From: Oligoflexales bacterium
Lineage (GTDB): Bacteria > Bdellovibrionota_B > Oligoflexia > Oligoflexales > Bog-1112
Direction: 5' to 3'
Assembly: GCA_045106415.1 (NCBI GenBank)
Contig: JBGCEP010000011.1
Span: forward strand, 1 to 17,535
Length of the DNA: 17,535 nucleotides
Within the stretch, counting starts at the first letter, position 1; each line of letters opens with the position of its first letter. Below are positions 2 to 7,777 of the stretch, one piece after another. Position numbers and translations under genes: made by a program. Under the pieces are notes generated by a model. It saw nothing but the letters and a program-made list of their open reading frames with translations, did no database searches and was not told where the DNA came from.

Positions 2-490
2 GGAATTGCACAAACTCCTGATCATATTCAACTATGGAAACTTCTCGCGCAATTATTTCAAGACCAACAAAGCACTGAAGACTTTATCAAATTCGCACAA
101 GATCAGGGTGCTTGGGTTGGCTTGTGCATTGCGGCTGAACACACTCAAGACCCAACAGTAAACCGTAGAGTCTGGCTTGAAAAACTGTATAAATCTGGTG
201 AACGCTCCATGGCTTTCTTAACTGAATACAGCGGCTGCCTTGGGTCTTGCGGACACTTTGACAGCATTCCTTCTGTCTTATGGGAAGCGCGACACCAAAA
301 AGAAGACACCCCATGGGAACTTGAATTGAATGGCCTTCAGGCCTACCTCTCCATGGAAAATGATAAAGAATTCCTAAAAGAATCTCCTGAGCTACTCAAG
401 CGCTCTGAGTTACCCGAAGACGTACGGACAATGATTATCAGCTGGCAAGAAGAATGCCGGGCAGAAGGGCTGCTTCATGCAGATCAATAG
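2..490 (+). CDS. Hypothetical protein, 5'-truncated by the window edge (probably helical)
   Basis: The frame of the listed 122..490 ORF is open back to position 2 (GIAQTPDHIQLWKLLAQLFQDQQSTEDFIKFAQ...), so the true start lies upstream. It overlaps the next gene by 14 bp (477-490). No recognisable motif. Confidence 0.7.
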   Translation, partial: GIAQTPDHIQLWKLLAQLFQDQQSTEDFIKFAQDQGAWVGLCIAAEHTQDPTVNRRVWLEKLYKSGERSMAFLTEYSGCLGSCGHFDSIPSVLWEARHQKEDTPWELELNGLQAYLSMENDKEFLKESPELLKRSELPEDVRTMIISWQEECRAEGLLHADQ

Positions 491-863
491 TGTTCACACA
501 CAAAACGCCTGCGCCCCTATCGGCCCTTATTCACAAGCAACCTGCCACGCTGAACTTATTTATTGCTCAGGGCAAATTGGCTTGAACTCCGAAGGAGAGC
601 TCCCAAGCTCTCTGGAAGCTCAGGCCAAACAAATTTTTGAAAATATTGAAGCCGTTCTAGTCGCAGCAGGCTCAGGAGTTGGGTCTATCTTACGTTGCGT
701 GATTTATCTAACAAACATGGCTGATTTTACCGAGGTTAACGCCCTTTACAAAGACTTTGTTAAAGAGCCATACCCTGCGCGTTCAACGATTGAAGTTAGC
801 CAGTTACCAAAAGGCGCACTGATAGAAATTGAAGTCACAGCATGCAAACGAATGTTTACTTAG
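477..863 (+). CDS. ridA: RidA/YjgF/YER057c/UK114-family reactive intermediate (enamine/imine) deaminase
   Basis: 128 aa with APIGPYSQA, SGQIG, F..VN..Y, PYPARS (conserved catalytic Arg) and LPKGALIEIE. Confidence 0.93.
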   Translation: MQINSVHTQNACAPIGPYSQATCHAELIYCSGQIGLNSEGELPSSLEAQAKQIFENIEAVLVAAGSGVGSILRCVIYLTNMADFTEVNALYKDFVKEPYPARSTIEVSQLPKGALIEIEVTACKRMFT

Positions 864-930: not shown

Positions 931-953
931 GGCGGATAAGTCCGGAGATTCTC

Positions 954-1424
954 ATGAGTCCAGCAAACATGACTCACATTTATATCAGAAGAATTTTATG
1001 GTTGTTCGCAACAGCCTTAAGCTTCGCGTATTTAAATAGTCCCATTGTGGCTCGACTAAGAGACGCACCGACCACGGTTTTCGTTGAAATTGCCGGTGAA
1101 AATTATGGGCATTTTGAAAGTATCGCAGGCTTAGAGGATCTTGTTGGGCAAGCATCTAAGAATGGTTATACCACGGTGAGCCTCAAAAGAGACTTCGTCA
1201 CCGAGCGCTCACTTTCAAACTGGGCAGCAACCACAAATAAATTACGACGAGGCCCTCAAGACGTTCATCTCATTAAGAAGAGCGAAGACGGTCAAATTAT
1301 ACGACGCTATGTCTTGCGGTTATCACACCCGCTGTCCTGGAGCGTCGAACAAGATGCTGACACTGCTCCAGGAGGGTACCATGAAAAAGTTGAGCTCGCT
1401 GTCCAGGAAGTTACGATTCGCTAA
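954..1424 (+). CDS. Phage tail tube protein-like (T4 gp19 / CIS Afp1-type fold) with N-terminal signal or TM helix
   Basis: Residues ~41-156 follow the gp19-like pattern FVEIxG..F..IxGL / Y..V.LKR....L..W / DVxLI...EDG..I.RY.L....P.SWS / E.VELAV.E. The N-terminus RRILWLFATALSFAYL is hydrophobic. GGAG RBS upstream. Confidence 0.75.
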   Translation: MSPANMTHIYIRRILWLFATALSFAYLNSPIVARLRDAPTTVFVEIAGENYGHFESIAGLEDLVGQASKNGYTTVSLKRDFVTERSLSNWAATTNKLRRGPQDVHLIKKSEDGQIIRRYVLRLSHPLSWSVEQDADTAPGGYHEKVELAVQEVTIR

Positions 1425-2622
1425 GTCCTTTGGACTCCCTACGATATTGTTCTGCACCATCGGTTGTGTCCGTCAAAACTCCCAAGAAGACGACGAAGAT
1501 TCTTGGAGCTATCAAAAACTTTTCAATCAGAGTGGTTACAAATTTGCCACTCTTATGTCCAACCCCTGCAAAGCATCAGAGCAACCAACGTGGCTCATTC
1601 ACACCCACACCCCCGCTGGTGTACAACGACTTCATATCGCTGTCGACACACAGGCTTCAACACAACTTCAAAACACTTTCATTCGTTTTGATCAAAATGA
1701 CGAACTCGACTCTATCAAAAATAAACTTTGCACTCCTGACAAACTGACCCTCGCACAAGCTGAACGTACTGTTCAAGGCTGGATACAAGCCCTAGCTCCT
1801 GACTGCCAGTGGAAACTTCAAGAAAACGGTTGGCACTGCGAGCTTCCAACCATCAAAAAAGACTTCGCAATGTCGGAACTTCAAAAGCTTCGTAAAAAAA
1901 TGCTCCGCTTTTGGAAACGCCCCGCATATTTACTTTCAAGAAGATTAGCGATGACTCGCCGTTGGGCAAGCGCTCAAAATGAACAGCAACTTTGCTCATT
2001 GACGAAAAACTCCTTGCCTGACGAACTCCCTCTAATCATGGCAAGTTCTGTTTGGCAAAATGCTGTTTGCAACCCCGACACCTCTGAACACAATAGAAAC
2101 ACACTTGTTGGTTTTGCACTTCGCAAATCAGTTCAAGAGATTGAACGCCTTTTAAGGGTAGTACAAACCAGCAATAAAACAGGATCTGTGCGTATTCAAT
2201 TTAAAAACGCACCAAGCCGAGATATTTTAGTCAAGCTCACCCCACAAGATACAGTCAACTCCACTCTATCCGAAAGCTTACGAGAGCTTCACCAACACCG
2301 AGCCTGTTGGCATCCTTTGTTTGGTTCAAAACTGCAAGAAGCACGTACCTTAGGTCTTATTGGACATCATTCAAAAGCAGTTTGCACAGCTCCTCAAGGA
2401 ATCCCTTACGTCGCTAGATCTATCCAAGGGGAAACAGAGTTTATTGTCACGAATGGTCGTTACAAAACCCTCGTTCTTCCAAAAGGAAGTTATCGCTACA
2501 CTCTGACAGCAATTCGGAAAGACAGACACCCTGAGCAACAGTTTGACTCAGGCGCTATAGAATGGAAGCGTAGAAGACCGCGACAGATTATTCACAATAC
2601 AACTTCAAATGCTAGACTGTGA
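1381..2622 (+). CDS. Putative Cys-rich lipoprotein of unknown function (413 aa)
   Basis: AGGAGG precedes the ATG at 1381, which is preferred over 1309. Basic n-region, hydrophobic h-region and lipobox TIG-C29, followed by 8 further Cys. Overlaps the tube-like gene by 44 bp. Confidence 0.65.
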   Translation: MKKLSSLSRKLRFAKSFGLPTILFCTIGCVRQNSQEDDEDSWSYQKLFNQSGYKFATLMSNPCKASEQPTWLIHTHTPAGVQRLHIAVDTQASTQLQNTFIRFDQNDELDSIKNKLCTPDKLTLAQAERTVQGWIQALAPDCQWKLQENGWHCELPTIKKDFAMSELQKLRKKMLRFWKRPAYLLSRRLAMTRRWASAQNEQQLCSLTKNSLPDELPLIMASSVWQNAVCNPDTSEHNRNTLVGFALRKSVQEIERLLRVVQTSNKTGSVRIQFKNAPSRDILVKLTPQDTVNSTLSESLRELHQHRACWHPLFGSKLQEARTLGLIGHHSKAVCTAPQGIPYVARSIQGETEFIVTNGRYKTLVLPKGSYRYTLTAIRKDRHPEQQFDSGAIEWKRRRPRQIIHNTTSNARL

Positions 2623-2658
2623 GCAGACTTCTTTTTGTTCCAACCGATGGGGCGACAC

Positions 2659-3048
2659 ATGAAAAACACCATCTACAAAATCATGATCATTGACGACGAT
2701 GACGATACACGAGACATCTTGTCGAAACACCTCTCAGAACTCTACCCTCAAAAACTGGATATCCACACCGAAGATAACGGAATTGACGGTTTGCGCATCT
2801 TGGCAGAAAAAAAATTTGACTTCATTCTCACAGATTTCCTTATGCCTAGTATGAATGGCATGGAAATCATTACTGATATTAGAACTGGCTCAACCTGTAA
2901 CCAAGCAACCCCTATCTTGTGCATCACAGGCCATTTGCCCATGATTGATGATAAAATCCCTGCGCACATCCTCACAAATACTGATTTTTTAGAAAAGCCA
3001 TATCAGCTTGAAGAATTTAAATCGCTCACACGGCAGTATCTTTTTTAA
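2659..3048 (+). CDS. Single-domain response regulator (CheY-like receiver)
   Basis: IMIIDDD acidic pocket, ILTDFLMPSMNG (phosphoacceptor Asp), ITG and FLEKPY. No output domain. The start at the MKNTIYK ATG (2659) is most plausible. Confidence 0.9.
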   Translation: MKNTIYKIMIIDDDDDTRDILSKHLSELYPQKLDIHTEDNGIDGLRILAEKKFDFILTDFLMPSMNGMEIITDIRTGSTCNQATPILCITGHLPMIDDKIPAHILTNTDFLEKPYQLEEFKSLTRQYLF

Positions 3049-3184
3049 AATAGAAAATCATAGAAAAAAAACCTATGAATTCAGCCTCTAAAACCTCTTC
3101 CAGAAAATAATCCTTACCCTCTCTTTATCAGCTCCGATAGAATTTTCAGCTTATCTACGCCGTCATTCATCGAGGTTCGACATT

Positions 3185-5458
3185 ATGTTTGAGGTTAAAA
3201 AACATCTTGGAATCATTATGGTTATACTACCCATAATTTCTTGCGGGCTCCGCTCACGAAAAAAAATCTCTGCACCCCTCCAAGAAAGCACATTCGTTCG
3301 CCAAGAAGAATCTATCAATGATGCCGACGCACAGGGACAATCCAGCGTGCAAAACCCTGGCGCTCTTCACACAGATACGATTCAAGCTCCAAACATTCAA
3401 GAAGGAAACAGCGAACTTAAAATCCCAAGCGTCTCAAAAGGAAACCCTTTCACATGTGAAGAAGAAAAAAGAACAGCGAGCCCAACTCCTCTTATTCGTT
3501 TAAATCAAAAAGAGTACCAACGTACGGTTTCAAGTTTATTTGGTGAATACCTTAGCGCATCACAAATCATGAATATTCTACAATCTATTCCAGCTGATAA
3601 TCGCAAAGGTTTTTTTCATAACCAAGATTTAAGTATCGCACTACCGACGATACAGGGGTATTTTAGCGCAGCTCATCAGATTGCTCTTATTTTAAGCCGG
3701 AACCAAGATTTTTCTGATGAAAACTTCCCGTGCACGACACTCAATGAAAACTGCATCAAAAGCTTCGGTTCCTCATTAGGAAAAAGAATTATCCGCAGAC
3801 CCTGGAGCCAAAAAGATACGGATAAATACTTCACTTTTATAAACTCTATCGACACAACAACGAAAGAAGAACAACTTTCAGCACTTCTTTCTGCTCTTTT
3901 ACAGACACCAGAGATGATCTATAAGGTTGAAATAGGGGACTCGGAACTCTCCGCTGGAGTTTACAAACTTCACGATTGGGAGCTGGCTCATCGTATTGCC
4001 TACACAGCTACAGGGTCTCTACCCACAACTCAAACATGGGAGCTCATTGAATCGGGAGAGTTGCAAGATCCAAAAGTTCTCAAAGATTGGATAGAAGATC
4101 TCTTTCAACAAACTTCAACACGTGAGCACATTGAGTCTTTTTATAGTCAGTGGCTCAGTTTTCACGAGCTTCCTTCTCCGGGATATACCAGTCGATTTCT
4201 AGGAGGACTTAGCGCCACAAACCTAGCTCGTGATGCACAGCAAGAACTACAAGCCCTCACAAACGACATGACCTGGACATCTTCTGGGTCTTACTCAGAC
4301 CTTCTAACGACAACAAAATCATTTGGCTCTTCAGACCTGCTCCAGGCGATTTATCAAAACAATTCCGAGCTTAATCCCACAGCTCAAACCCTGTCTGTCG
4401 ACACGTTTCAATTTAATGAAAATGGCCCCGAAGACATCATGGGGCAACGGCAATGGACACCTTACGGCAATCAAGCTCAAGCACAATTTTCCCTCAATTT
4501 CCAAAAAAACGACTCTATTCAAATCCAGGCTTATGGGCAGTCTCTCAACGGGGTTTCTCCAGTGATGACTGTCCAAATCCTTGACTCGAACCAATCTGAA
4601 TTATCTCAACAAAACATTGAGGTTTCTTCAGACTCAGCGAAATTATTCCCTCTTAATGTTCCCCCCACAGAAGGGGAAATCACTGTTGTTTTAGGAACAA
4701 ATAATGACGAAATCCAAAATGGAAATGATAGAAATCTTTGGATTTTAAACGCTCAAATCATAAATTCTTTGTCCACAAAAAAAGAATCCTCTACAACAAA
4801 AGCACGCAAAGGCATTCTGTCTCGCGTGGGTTTCTTATTAAGCGGTGATGACTCGACTCACCTTGTCCATCGAGGTGTCAAAATACGCCAAAGAGTGCTT
4901 TGTGAAAAAATGAATCCTCCTGCAGTGGATCCTGATACGCCAGATCTTTTTGATCCTCCTGCACCAAACGCTGAAAAGTCAACAAAGGACCAGATAGCAG
5001 AACGTACGTCAGCACCACAATGTGCAGCATGTCACACAAGAATCAACCCTATGGGGTTCGTCCTAGAAAGCTACGATGCAATAGGGAGACACCGAGATAT
5101 TGAAAGAATATTTTCGCCAAACGGTGTTCTTATTGCAGAACATCCCGTTGACACCACTGTCCATCCAAATATTTATGGCCCAAATGAAGCAGAGGTACAC
5201 AACGCAAATGAAATGAGTGACGCTATCGCTGAGTCCACCAAAGGTCCGGCTTGTATGAGTCTTCAATGGTTTGCATACACAAGACAAAGGGAAGCGACCG
5301 AAAATGACATCTGTGAGATGAAAGAATTCTACGACCAACTTCAAACCGACGATTCCACTTCTTACAGTCGTCAAAAACCAGCAACATTGCTCAATCTTTT
5401 ACAATCATCTTTTTTAACCGGGGCCTTTCAAACCCTTGTCAAAGCCCTAGAGGAGTAA
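3185..5458 (+). CDS. DUF1592-family lipoprotein (DUF1587-DUF1595-DUF1592-DUF1588-DUF1585 architecture) with a CxxCH motif and an inserted CBM-like domain
   Basis: Lipobox IIS-C20. Motifs PLIRLNQKEYQRTV, IIRRPW, LHDWELAHRIAY...P, RKGILS...VHRGVKIRQRVLC...PP, CAACHTRINPMGFVLESYDAIGRHR (CAACH at 5021-5035) and a C-terminal C...WFAY...RE...D.C. Confidence 0.88.
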   Translation: MFEVKKHLGIIMVILPIISCGLRSRKKISAPLQESTFVRQEESINDADAQGQSSVQNPGALHTDTIQAPNIQEGNSELKIPSVSKGNPFTCEEEKRTASPTPLIRLNQKEYQRTVSSLFGEYLSASQIMNILQSIPADNRKGFFHNQDLSIALPTIQGYFSAAHQIALILSRNQDFSDENFPCTTLNENCIKSFGSSLGKRIIRRPWSQKDTDKYFTFINSIDTTTKEEQLSALLSALLQTPEMIYKVEIGDSELSAGVYKLHDWELAHRIAYTATGSLPTTQTWELIESGELQDPKVLKDWIEDLFQQTSTREHIESFYSQWLSFHELPSPGYTSRFLGGLSATNLARDAQQELQALTNDMTWTSSGSYSDLLTTTKSFGSSDLLQAIYQNNSELNPTAQTLSVDTFQFNENGPEDIMGQRQWTPYGNQAQAQFSLNFQKNDSIQIQAYGQSLNGVSPVMTVQILDSNQSELSQQNIEVSSDSAKLFPLNVPPTEGEITVVLGTNNDEIQNGNDRNLWILNAQIINSLSTKKESSTTKARKGILSRVGFLLSGDDSTHLVHRGVKIRQRVLCEKMNPPAVDPDTPDLFDPPAPNAEKSTKDQIAERTSAPQCAACHTRINPMGFVLESYDAIGRHRDIERIFSPNGVLIAEHPVDTTVHPNIYGPNEAEVHNANEMSDAIAESTKGPACMSLQWFAYTRQREATENDICEMKEFYDQLQTDDSTSYSRQKPATLLNLLQSSFLTGAFQTLVKALEE

Positions 5459-5462
5459 GCTC

Positions 5463-6941
5463 ATGAAAACGCCAAAAAACTCTCGCCGCATGTTTCTAAA
5501 GCACACCTCTGGCCTCGTCGTTGGCATTCCTCTACTAAGCTCTTTATTTCAAAAACAAGCTTTCGCCGCAGCCGGCGGAGCCGATCGGTTTGTTTTTCTT
5601 CACAGCGGACACGGTCAGTTCGCAGATCAGTGGCTTCCAGACCCTTCTTCTTACAATTGGGCACAAAACAACACAAACGAACGCCGCGTTGATCTCACAG
5701 ATATAGCAGGACCAATCTCTCAAATTTTAGGAGCTGACTTTGATAGCCTCAGGGATAAACTCACACTTCTGAGTCGAATTGATTACTCTTCAGACGGACC
5801 TAATCACAATCCCGAAGCTCTTCTCACAGGTGGTATTTTAGGAGCTAATAATGCAGAAATCTCTATCGATCACGTCATAGCAGATAAAAAATACGGGAAA
5901 TCTCCACTCAATATCATTGTGAATTCCCACGCAACAGCAAACCCATCAAAATTTAACTGTAGTGTTAAAAACGCATCATATGCACAAGCTTATTACAGCC
6001 CTGCTGTCATTTTCAACCAAGTTTTCCAACTCAATGGAACCGCAGCCGAAAAGACTCCAGGAGCGGTCATCTCATCGAACCAACAAAAAAAGGTGATTGA
6101 CTTTGTTCTTGAAGAATATAAATCCCTAGAAAACAATTCAAGACTTTCAAAAGCTGATAAAGAACGCCTTCAAGAACATATTCAGCTCCTCAGTGAAGTT
6201 GAAGGAAAAATCAACGATAGTATTTCTTCTCCGCCACCCGCTTCCTGCAGCAATATACAAGGACCGACTTCGAGCCCGCTCAATACTGGAGATAGTGCCG
6301 ATTACGACATTGTATTGGATCAAGCTTTTGAAATCTTAGGAATTGCTGTTCGATGCGGTCAAGAACCTATTTCCACACTGATGTTTCATCCTTACGATTA
6401 TTTTCAGGGGAACCTCGATTTCTTAGGCCTAACTGGAGATTTTCACACAAGCGTCGGCCACGCCGATGAAGCACAATATAAGCCACAAAAGCTTAAATTA
6501 CAGCAGTATTACGCTCAAAAAATTGCAAAATTCCTTAGTGAGCTCAACACCGTAGAAAACACAACCACTGGAGATACTTATCTGGATAACTCCATTGTCT
6601 TTTGGGGAAACGACCAAGGAGCCGCCGATCGACCAGGGTATCACTCTGATCTTAACCTTCCTATTTTTATCGCAGGAGGAAAAGCCGCAGGGCTTCAAAC
6701 AGGACAATATATTGATTACGGCACCGCTATGAATGGACTTGTTTCAGCAAATTATCCATCTGCGCAGTTTGGAAGACCACTCAATCAAGTCCTCGTCACC
6801 ATTCTTCAAGGGATGGGCCTCACACCAAATGAGTACGAAGCCCCAGGTGGCGGATTCGGACACTACGGAGGGCGAACTGCTGTTTTTGAAACTAACGGAG
6901 CCGATGACCACAAGACTAGCCCACTCCCTTTTCTTAAATAA
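5463..6941 (+). CDS. DUF1552-family protein with Tat signal peptide
   Basis: SRRMFLK twin-Arg motif and AFA cleavage site. Motifs RFVF...HG...W.P, ISIDHVIA, LSKADKERLQEH...L.EVE, G.T.LDNSIVFWG, H...NLP...AGG...GL.TG.Y.DY and P.NQ.LVTILQ.MG. Lies 4 nt after the DUF1592 gene, its usual partner. Confidence 0.9.
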   Translation: MKTPKNSRRMFLKHTSGLVVGIPLLSSLFQKQAFAAAGGADRFVFLHSGHGQFADQWLPDPSSYNWAQNNTNERRVDLTDIAGPISQILGADFDSLRDKLTLLSRIDYSSDGPNHNPEALLTGGILGANNAEISIDHVIADKKYGKSPLNIIVNSHATANPSKFNCSVKNASYAQAYYSPAVIFNQVFQLNGTAAEKTPGAVISSNQQKKVIDFVLEEYKSLENNSRLSKADKERLQEHIQLLSEVEGKINDSISSPPPASCSNIQGPTSSPLNTGDSADYDIVLDQAFEILGIAVRCGQEPISTLMFHPYDYFQGNLDFLGLTGDFHTSVGHADEAQYKPQKLKLQQYYAQKIAKFLSELNTVENTTTGDTYLDNSIVFWGNDQGAADRPGYHSDLNLPIFIAGGKAAGLQTGQYIDYGTAMNGLVSANYPSAQFGRPLNQVLVTILQGMGLTPNEYEAPGGGFGHYGGRTAVFETNGADDHKTSPLPFLK

Positions 6942-6984: not shown

Positions 6985-7572
6985 TCACTTAGTAAAACAA
7001 TCTGTTCCGGTTCCAAGAACTCGAACTCTGGTCGCAGCTGTTTCTCCAGTATATGAAGAAGAATCAGACGGTGAAGCTCCAAAACACAGTTTAGACCCAT
7101 CGACATTATAAATCGTATAAAAAGTATTACCAACAACCTCTTCGTTCACTGTTCCATCATAATCAAAACCAATAACCCCTTGAGCCGTATCAAGAGTCCA
7201 GTCCGTTTGACCAAACGCTGAGCTTGCATTCATAGCTGTCACCATCTCCGCTGTATGAGGAGCTGCCGTGACCTCTGCCAAAACAAGGTCCAATGAAGTT
7301 GCGTTCTCAACAAAAGCGATATCACCATCAGCTGTGTAGCCATACTGATAACGATATGTCTGAACTTTTGTTGCACACGCCGCATCAGTGTATATAGAAA
7401 CACCCACAGTAAAGATATCTTCATCCACTTCAATAAATGATAACGACGAACTATCTCCATCAACCTCACAGGTCCCGCTCCAAGTTCCTACCAATTCATT
7501 TTCTTCTTCTTCCTCTCCACAAGCACCAAACGCTAAAACAAAAGCAGCAAGAAACATTGATTTCATTTTCAT
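6985..7572 (-). CDS. Acidic lipoprotein, possibly lipocalin-like beta-barrel
   Basis: ATG at 7572 with a GGAG RBS. Signal MKMKSMFLAAFVLAFGA-C, then an acidic tether, LVGTWSGTC and a beta-strand-rich sequence with four more Cys. Confidence 0.75.
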   Translation of the reverse strand: MKMKSMFLAAFVLAFGACGEEEEENELVGTWSGTCEVDGDSSSLSFIEVDEDIFTVGVSIYTDAACATKVQTYRYQYGYTADGDIAFVENATSLDLVLAEVTAAPHTAEMVTAMNASSAFGQTDWTLDTAQGVIGFDYDGTVNEEVVGNTFYTIYNVDGSKLCFGASPSDSSSYTGETAATRVRVLGTGTDCFTK

Positions 7573-7777
7573 AGCAATTTCTCCAAAAATAGTTGAAACA
7601 ACAATAAAACCAAAGGATAAGTTTTTTTTAAAAAAATCCCTAACCTTCAAAAACATTATTTTATCACGTAAAAACTCACCCCACTTGTATATTGACACGG
7701 CCAACAAGCGCAAACCAGTTGTCTCGACATCGCAAATCGTTGTATACAGTCCCTCTGGACAGATTCAGGGGGCCAAG

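Follow-up and report, generated by a model that had tools for sequence, protein, structure and literature searches.

Proteins of the tube/Hcp fold are, to our knowledge, restricted to phage tails, tailocins, contractile injection systems (CIS) and T6SS, machines that all assemble in the cytoplasm. Among them, gp19, Hcp, Afp1 and Pvc1 form rings or pseudo-rings. A complete-looking CIS locus is present in a genome from a sister order within the class of the Oligoflexales (genome G104, G104:C29:30000-48000, L062). It holds two sheath genes, two canonical PF06841 tube genes (141 and 146 aa), the genes for CIS_tube, gp25 and Baseplate_J, and a 902-aa ORF without a family.

The gene described here is located at 954..1424 (+ strand) of a 17,535-nucleotide stretch of Oligoflexales DNA, called the window below, which is the entire contig C11 of a 2.95-Mb genome in 89 contigs, 93.8% complete. 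With a probability of roughly 60%, its product would be a contractile-injection tube protein that has been domesticated and acts outside the cytoplasm, in an exported, two-gene envelope module. If true, the ring-forming tube fold would have acquired a new role in the cell envelope, across a whole lineage and independently of a sheath. Full-text searches, judged mostly from listings and abstracts, returned no published description of such a protein; passages of PMC11937823 concern Myxococcota eCIS and not the tube-like protein. Both this protein and the lipoprotein encoded next to it carry the label 'hypothetical protein' in NCBI and IMG.

The ORF is real: it starts with ATG and encodes 156 aa followed by a stop codon, and a Shine-Dalgarno-like GGAG (944..947, +), read from the sequence, is found 6 nt before the start codon. 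A word-indexed search with the protein gave one relative, while HMMER, run exhaustively over 1.84 billion representatives, gave a family of 90 clusters (50% identity) at E ≤ 0.001, with lengths of 94-185 aa in almost every case. The family alignment is made of 66 of these 90 clusters; rows that were short or fragments were left out, as was P0088 (991 aa). The latter had been retrieved with an E-value of 2.7e-4 and was rejected on inspection as a false hit, being an unrelated type of repeat-containing protein.

Taken alone, the 156-aa protein matches PF06841 with E 0.016 (residues 70-153 on profile positions 48-133), its 15.5 bits not reaching the Pfam gathering threshold of 28.2 bits, and TIGR02241 with E 0.012. 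At the family level, PF06841 matches 60 of the 66 members at E ≤ 1, the best at 4.5e-8; any other family is matched by at most one member among the matches listed. The Hcp family PF05638 gave no sequence match to the tube-like protein at E ≤ 1, and it is absent from the 25 families listed out of the 26 matched by any of the 66 members. PHROGs yielded only matches with E > 0.05, all to families of unknown function. The family profile, searched against PDB sequences, retrieved the AlgoCIS baseplate chain 7aeb_Y (147 aa, E 2.2e-4) and, further, Pvc5, Streptomyces and Photorhabdus CIS chains, Pvc1 and Afp1. Aligned by hhalign with the two canonical tubes of the G104 locus, the family gives probabilities of 95.6% and 95.9% (E 1.1e-8 and 6.3e-9), over query residues 41-152 and 41-154, respectively.

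The structural comparison leads to the same fold. The AF2 model (pLDDT 92.1, pTM 0.74) is a tube/Hcp beta-sandwich with one helix, as also found by Foldseek and VIA. Foldseek retrieved 27 PDB chains at E ≤ 0.001, tube or Hcp throughout among the matches listed; VIA-align gave Z scores of 10-12, with only tube/Hcp chains among the matches listed. The tightest VIA fits are to 6bdc (Z 11.9, 2.7 Å over 106 residues) and 7yw0 (Z 11.7, 2.4 Å over 101 residues), and Pvc1 and Afp1 score Z 11.2-11.6. Since the Pfam, hhalign, PDB profile, Foldseek and VIA results agree, homology and fold are established at the family level, and the protein is a divergent homologue of the PF06841 contractile-injection tube proteins. 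The tube pattern that the initial annotation had recognised over residues 41-156 is hence beyond chance. The mature tube/Hcp-fold domain comprises residues 34-156 (1053..1421, +).

A shortened hairpin had been pointed out in the same annotation, and the alignments bear this out. Compared with canonical tubes, 14-15 residues are missing between Q66 and A67, within the hairpin region of residues 59-72 (1128..1169, +). Against each of the two G104 tubes, hhalign opens a single gap in the query, of 14 or 15 residues, at this position, and HMMER places the same 14-residue gap in the alignment with PDB chain 9gtp_a. The interval from the invariant G52 to the near-invariant R79 counts 26 residues in the query, with a family median of 27 (range 16-42); it does not exceed 30 residues in 60 of the 66 members, against the 40-41 implied for canonical tubes. 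The extended, ring-inserting beta-hairpin of CIS, phage and T6SS tubes is thus not present in the tube-like protein. In two other genomes of the order (G036:C75:50522-51217 and G040:C137:14247-14774), the match to the family comes in two pieces of a single open frame (252 and 190 aa, respectively), pointing to a long insert in both lineages, at the site of the hairpin or close to it.

The trimmed hairpin is the one that completes the lumen barrel and joins the rings in canonical tubes. It could be argued from this that the exported protein forms no ring at all and that its fold serves only as a compact beta-sandwich, with which a monomer or dimer would bind the lipoprotein or some other ligand, or act as its chaperone. 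We consider this doubtful, even if it deserves attention. The closest structures by rmsd are the compact Hcp proteins of Bacteroidota (6bdc and 7yw0), which are also devoid of a long hairpin and which we take to form hexamers nonetheless. Moreover, the remaining domain aligns end to end with canonical tubes.

Ahead of the tube domain, residues 1-33 (954..1052, +) form a probable Sec signal peptide, with a likely cleavage after Ala33. This call is based on hand rules applied to the 66 aligned members, and the cleavage is deduced from them. In the AF2 model, residues 3-27 are a helix of high confidence. A basic, then hydrophobic N-terminal segment occurs in all 66 members, kept in kind rather than in sequence. 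Its n-region is net positive in 59/66, the uncharged run has a median length of 16 residues (14 in the protein of the window), and a polar c-region of five residues follows in 33/66. Alanine occupies the aligned -1 position in 59/66 members, and the -3 position is small or aliphatic (L, V, S, A, I, T or G) in 60/66. Some choices are less usual for a signal peptide: Leu at -3 in 18/66 and Pro at -2 in 15/66. By these hand rules, the family displays the hallmarks of Sec and signal peptidase I substrates.

The N-terminal basic and hydrophobic helix of the initial annotation is therefore present and conserved. Its description as a replaced N-terminal arm did not hold: an added signal peptide fits better, because the spacing between the conserved Ala33 and the first strand, 10 residues in 61/66 members, resembles the canonical N-arm (in the hhalign alignments, query residue 41 falls on residue 11-12 of the canonical tubes).

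The same annotation had called this segment a membrane helix. As an uncleaved signal-anchor, it would tether the tube domain to the inner membrane by a short linker, facing the periplasm, and a hexamer would then bring six transmembrane helices together. Uncharged runs of 20-28 residues in some members are in line with this, the helix is modelled at high confidence, and the constant 10-residue spacing could be a structural linker. On the other hand, the typical run, and even more that of the query, is short for a membrane span, half of the members carry the polar c-region, and the -1 and -3 residues follow the signal peptidase I pattern. From these signal-peptide statistics, a cleaved Sec signal peptide appears more likely than an anchor, and the anchored form is judged unlikely.

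The choice of the start codon bears directly on this segment. In the window, the next in-frame starts are situated within or past the helix, and GGAG precedes only the ATG at 954. In the Oligoflexus tunisiensis orthologue (L020, 5932-6402), the ORF from the first ATG is also 156 aa long and includes the basic n-region. The RefSeq entry of this orthologue, WP_218109822.1, begins 14 residues later (142 aa) with the hydrophobic core retained; the RefSeq start is probably too far downstream.

The gene that follows (1381..2622, +) encodes a lipoprotein of 413 aa, with a long basic n-region, a lipobox Cys29, a helical domain and a C-terminal beta-sandwich. The two genes overlap by 44 nt (1381..1424, +). 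The AGGAGG Shine-Dalgarno sequence of the lipoprotein gene (1370..1375, +), 5 nt before the ATG, and the ATG itself are both located within the tube-gene codons of a conserved Gly-Gly-aromatic-His-Glu motif. Because of the overlap, the bases for the C-terminal strand of the tube-like protein also encode, in the +1 frame, the basic n-region of the lipoprotein signal peptide. This makes a neat case of dual coding, in which a conserved C-terminal strand doubles as the ribosome-binding site, start codon and n-region of the partner. Among the 26 homologous loci scored, 22 have an overlap of precisely this length. Two of the exceptions seem to be due to wrongly chosen starts; in Oligoflexus, there is no overlap, and a 30-nt gap separates the genes.

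The pairing extends far beyond the window. The lipoprotein gene is located downstream of the tube-like gene in 38 of 42 distinct loci, which amounts to 38 out of 38 with enough sequence, as the other four end less than 500 nt past the tube gene. Among 95 genomes of the order, 83 contain both genes, adjacent in every row compared; eight gave a match to the tube-like gene only, four to neither and none to the lipoprotein gene only. In at least one of the eight (G010), the tube gene is near a contig end. The initial annotation had called the tube gene an orphan; this is correct as far as CIS genes are concerned, but the gene has an obligate-looking partner, which overlaps and co-occurs with it.

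The lipobox Cys29 is invariant in 25 out of 25 lipoproteins, and a hydrophobic run precedes it in the homologues listed, as is the rule in bacterial lipoproteins. Eight further Cys columns are conserved. These would be enough for four disulfides, as expected for an oxidising compartment outside the cytoplasm. A disulfide link between the two partners was considered and discarded: the single Cys of the tube-like protein, found in 24 of 25 paired loci and replaced by Ser in the window, shows no co-variation, and the post-lipobox Cys columns of the lipoprotein are even in number. For the complex of lipoprotein residues 47-413 with tube residues 34-156, the prediction, run without controls, scored 0.01 relative to a mark of 0.32.

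The AF2 model of the lipoprotein (pLDDT 81, pTM 0.80) consists of a disordered tether, the helical domain and the C-terminal beta-sandwich. Foldseek against the PDB returned nothing at E ≤ 0.001, the Atlas search gave no match at 0.9 or more, and neither Pfam on the 25 lipoproteins nor a PDB profile search produced a recurrent match. For residues 256-409, VIA gave generic beta-sandwich matches only (Z ≤ 7.4).

Some relatives within the Oligoflexales have been described as predatory or attached. This general knowledge, together with a C-terminal beta-sandwich of the carbohydrate-binding or adhesin type (Z ~7), would accommodate a pair exported to the surface or the medium, in which the lipoprotein would be an anchor exposed on the surface, and the tube-like protein would form a ring, secreted or at the surface, for contact with other cells or prey. 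Evidence of a dedicated secretion signal was not encountered, however, and a Z of ~7 lies within the range that the tool gives for a common arrangement, which leaves surface export quite improbable.

The tube-like gene is a regular component of Oligoflexales genomes. With the single protein as query, one match each was obtained in 55 of 61 related genomes and in 45 of the 46 of high quality; with the family profile, the gene was found, single-copy, in 91 of the 95 genomes of the order. The window's own genome contains no paralogue. Stop codons are absent from all matches. A PF06841 match was recorded in 35 of the 95 genomes, above Pfam's own cut-off in 19, and a comparison of coordinates places all 35 at the tube-like gene locus. 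In the window's own genome, PF06841 gave no match at the genome-wide level of E ≤ 1. Outside the order, only one of 36 genomes of the phylum-level group matches the profile, and this match is the true CIS locus of G104.

Sheath genes (PF04984) are present in 12 of the 95 genomes and were not found in the remaining 83. Pfam scans of the 14 ORFs of the window detected no sheath, baseplate, spike or capsid gene, in agreement with the initial annotation. A CIS or T6SS locus elsewhere was also searched for, and the families PF04984, PF05943, PF04965, PF05638 and PF05954 (sheath, TssC, gp25, Hcp and VgrG) have no match in the 93.8%-complete genome.

The genomic position is equally stable. In a sample of 48 loci with 42 distinct tube sequences, for which related loci were searched with a 12-row alignment and which include Oligoflexus tunisiensis, Pseudobacteriovorax and Oligoflexaceae MAGs, the order kept is a TPR gene, ridA, the tube-like gene, the lipoprotein gene and then ffh. 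In the window, the 3' part of the TPR-protein gene (2..490, +) is cut by the contig end and overlaps ridA by 14 nt; it is present in 34 of the 42 loci, and its full-length relatives, of ~315 aa, match TPR_19 (E 1e-9). The ridA gene (477..863, +; PF01042, E 2.8e-36) lies upstream in 39 of the 42. The ffh (SRP54) landmark (7388..9325, +; PF00448, E 8.6e-72) is found downstream in 19 of the 23 loci with a 6-kb flank. The tube-like gene has a G+C content of 0.46, close to the 0.445-0.45 of its neighbours. Given the presence of the gene in nearly the whole order, the rarity of sheath genes and the neighbour-like G+C content, the gene looks like an old one, vertically kept and independent of a contractile machine. 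Promoter and terminator scans remained at chance level, with four promoter-like sites for 3.9 expected and none on the + strand of the gap between ridA and the tube-like gene.

These observations leave very little room for a tube subunit, intact or vestigial, that stays in the cytoplasm and belongs to a cryptic prophage, tailocin or CIS, its hydrophobic N-terminus being due to a mis-called start: membership of PF06841 and the 14-residue shorter RefSeq call in O. tunisiensis speak for it, but even this shorter call retains the hydrophobic core, the export-type segment occurs in all 66 aligned members, later starts fall within or after the helix with GGAG only at ATG 954, 83 of the 95 genomes searched lack sheath genes, and the housekeeping synteny is kept in 42 distinct loci with stops in none of the matches. 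The survey of orthologues that the initial annotation had proposed shows that the N-terminal segment, the trimmed hairpin and the synteny are all kept. Because of the tube fold, the conserved N-terminus and a locus that is neither of prophage nor of CIS type and is free of decay, its description of the protein as domesticated and exported is well founded: the observations that could have spoken against it turned out otherwise, with tube-fold matches, a start upstream of the helix and a fixed housekeeping position.

Other genes of the window deserve a short description. Three genes (2635-6941, +), a receiver gene and a DUF1588/DUF1552 pair, have been inserted past the lipoprotein gene and ahead of ffh. 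The stand-alone receiver protein (PF00072) starts 12 nt past the lipoprotein stop; the pair encodes a protein of 757 aa with DUF1588/1592/1587/1595/1585 and one with DUF1552 (HXXSHH). The search of the 48 homologous loci yielded no relatives of these three proteins. The listed ffh ORF has a GTG start 134 codons ahead of the SRP54 N domain, and relatives align from about residue 113-131. As the domains of the family start only at residue 135, translation probably begins at a codon past 7388. This ORF overlaps the following MiaB/RimO-like radical-SAM gene by 65 nt. A PIG-L deacetylase-like gene, directly followed by a family-2 glycosyltransferase gene (11096-13822, +), and a GH30-like hydrolase gene (15464-16567, -) are ordinary envelope or polysaccharide genes. 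A 349-aa ORF (13907-14956, +) ends with a RING-type zinc finger (zf-RING_2, E 3.6e-9, and several other RING models); this is unusual for a bacterium, and the product could be a eukaryote-like E3 ligase.

The tube-like protein probably acts in the cell envelope without any injection machine, as it has gained an export signal, lost the stacking loop, occurs order-wide and is paired with a lipoprotein. In the proposed mechanism, the precursor would be exported by Sec and cut by signal peptidase I after Ala33, leaving a periplasmic domain of 123 residues. The mature domain would assemble into Hcp-like hexameric rings, like the characterised proteins of the tube/Hcp fold, which are ring or pseudo-ring formers. 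The short hairpin should allow little or no stacking of ring on ring, and no long stacked tube would be built. Together with the co-translated lipoprotein, the ring may constitute a two-component envelope structure: a scaffold, a periplasmic conduit or a ring holding a cargo. The Val at +2 would direct the lipoprotein to the outer membrane by the E. coli sorting rule. This +2 rule comes from E. coli and may not hold in this phylum.

A more far-reaching scenario can be proposed only tentatively. An ancestor of the Oligoflexales may have captured a tube gene, added a signal peptide and trimmed the hairpin, so that the protein would now form a periplasmic, Hcp-like ring docked to a disulfide-rich lipoprotein of its own. 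Such an envelope structure, whether conduit, spacer or cargo-holding ring, would be of a new kind and essential enough to be maintained in nearly every genome of the order. The source of the exported family could have been a CIS locus like the one of G104. The pair would offer a defined two-gene system, present in a cultured species, Oligoflexus tunisiensis, in which such a use of the fold is open to study.

Compared with known systems, the closest in sequence are the inner-tube and tube-initiator proteins of eCIS (Afp1/Afp5, Pvc1/Pvc5 and AlgoCIS 7aeb/7adz; PF06841, TIGR02241), which belong to the same sequence family. The fold is shared from the first to the C-terminal strand, and the domain measures ~120-145 residues in both. 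Unlike the eCIS tubes, the Oligoflexales protein possesses a signal peptide and is devoid of 14-15 residues of the stacking hairpin. Its gene, also unlike theirs, has no sheath, baseplate or spike genes nearby or, mostly, anywhere in the genome; it is single-copy, in a housekeeping position and coupled to a lipoprotein gene. The best superpositions are obtained with Hcp/TssD of the compact Bacteroidota type (Flavobacterium johnsoniae Hcp1, 6bdc, and Bacteroides fragilis Hcp5, 7yw0), which has no long hairpin either. In contrast to Hcp/TssD, the tube-like protein has no PF05638 match, and T6SS genes were not found in its genome; we know of no Hcp that carries a signal peptide. Neither the sheath, baseplate or spike neighbours nor the signal-peptide-less cytoplasmic assembly of CIS, phage and T6SS tubes is found here. 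As these functional hallmarks fail, along with the hairpin, the protein is regarded as an exapted derivative rather than a CIS component. The Oligoflexales case stands out by its descent from PF06841, the loss of part of the hairpin, a fixed place near ffh throughout the order and a lipoprotein gene that overlaps the tube gene.
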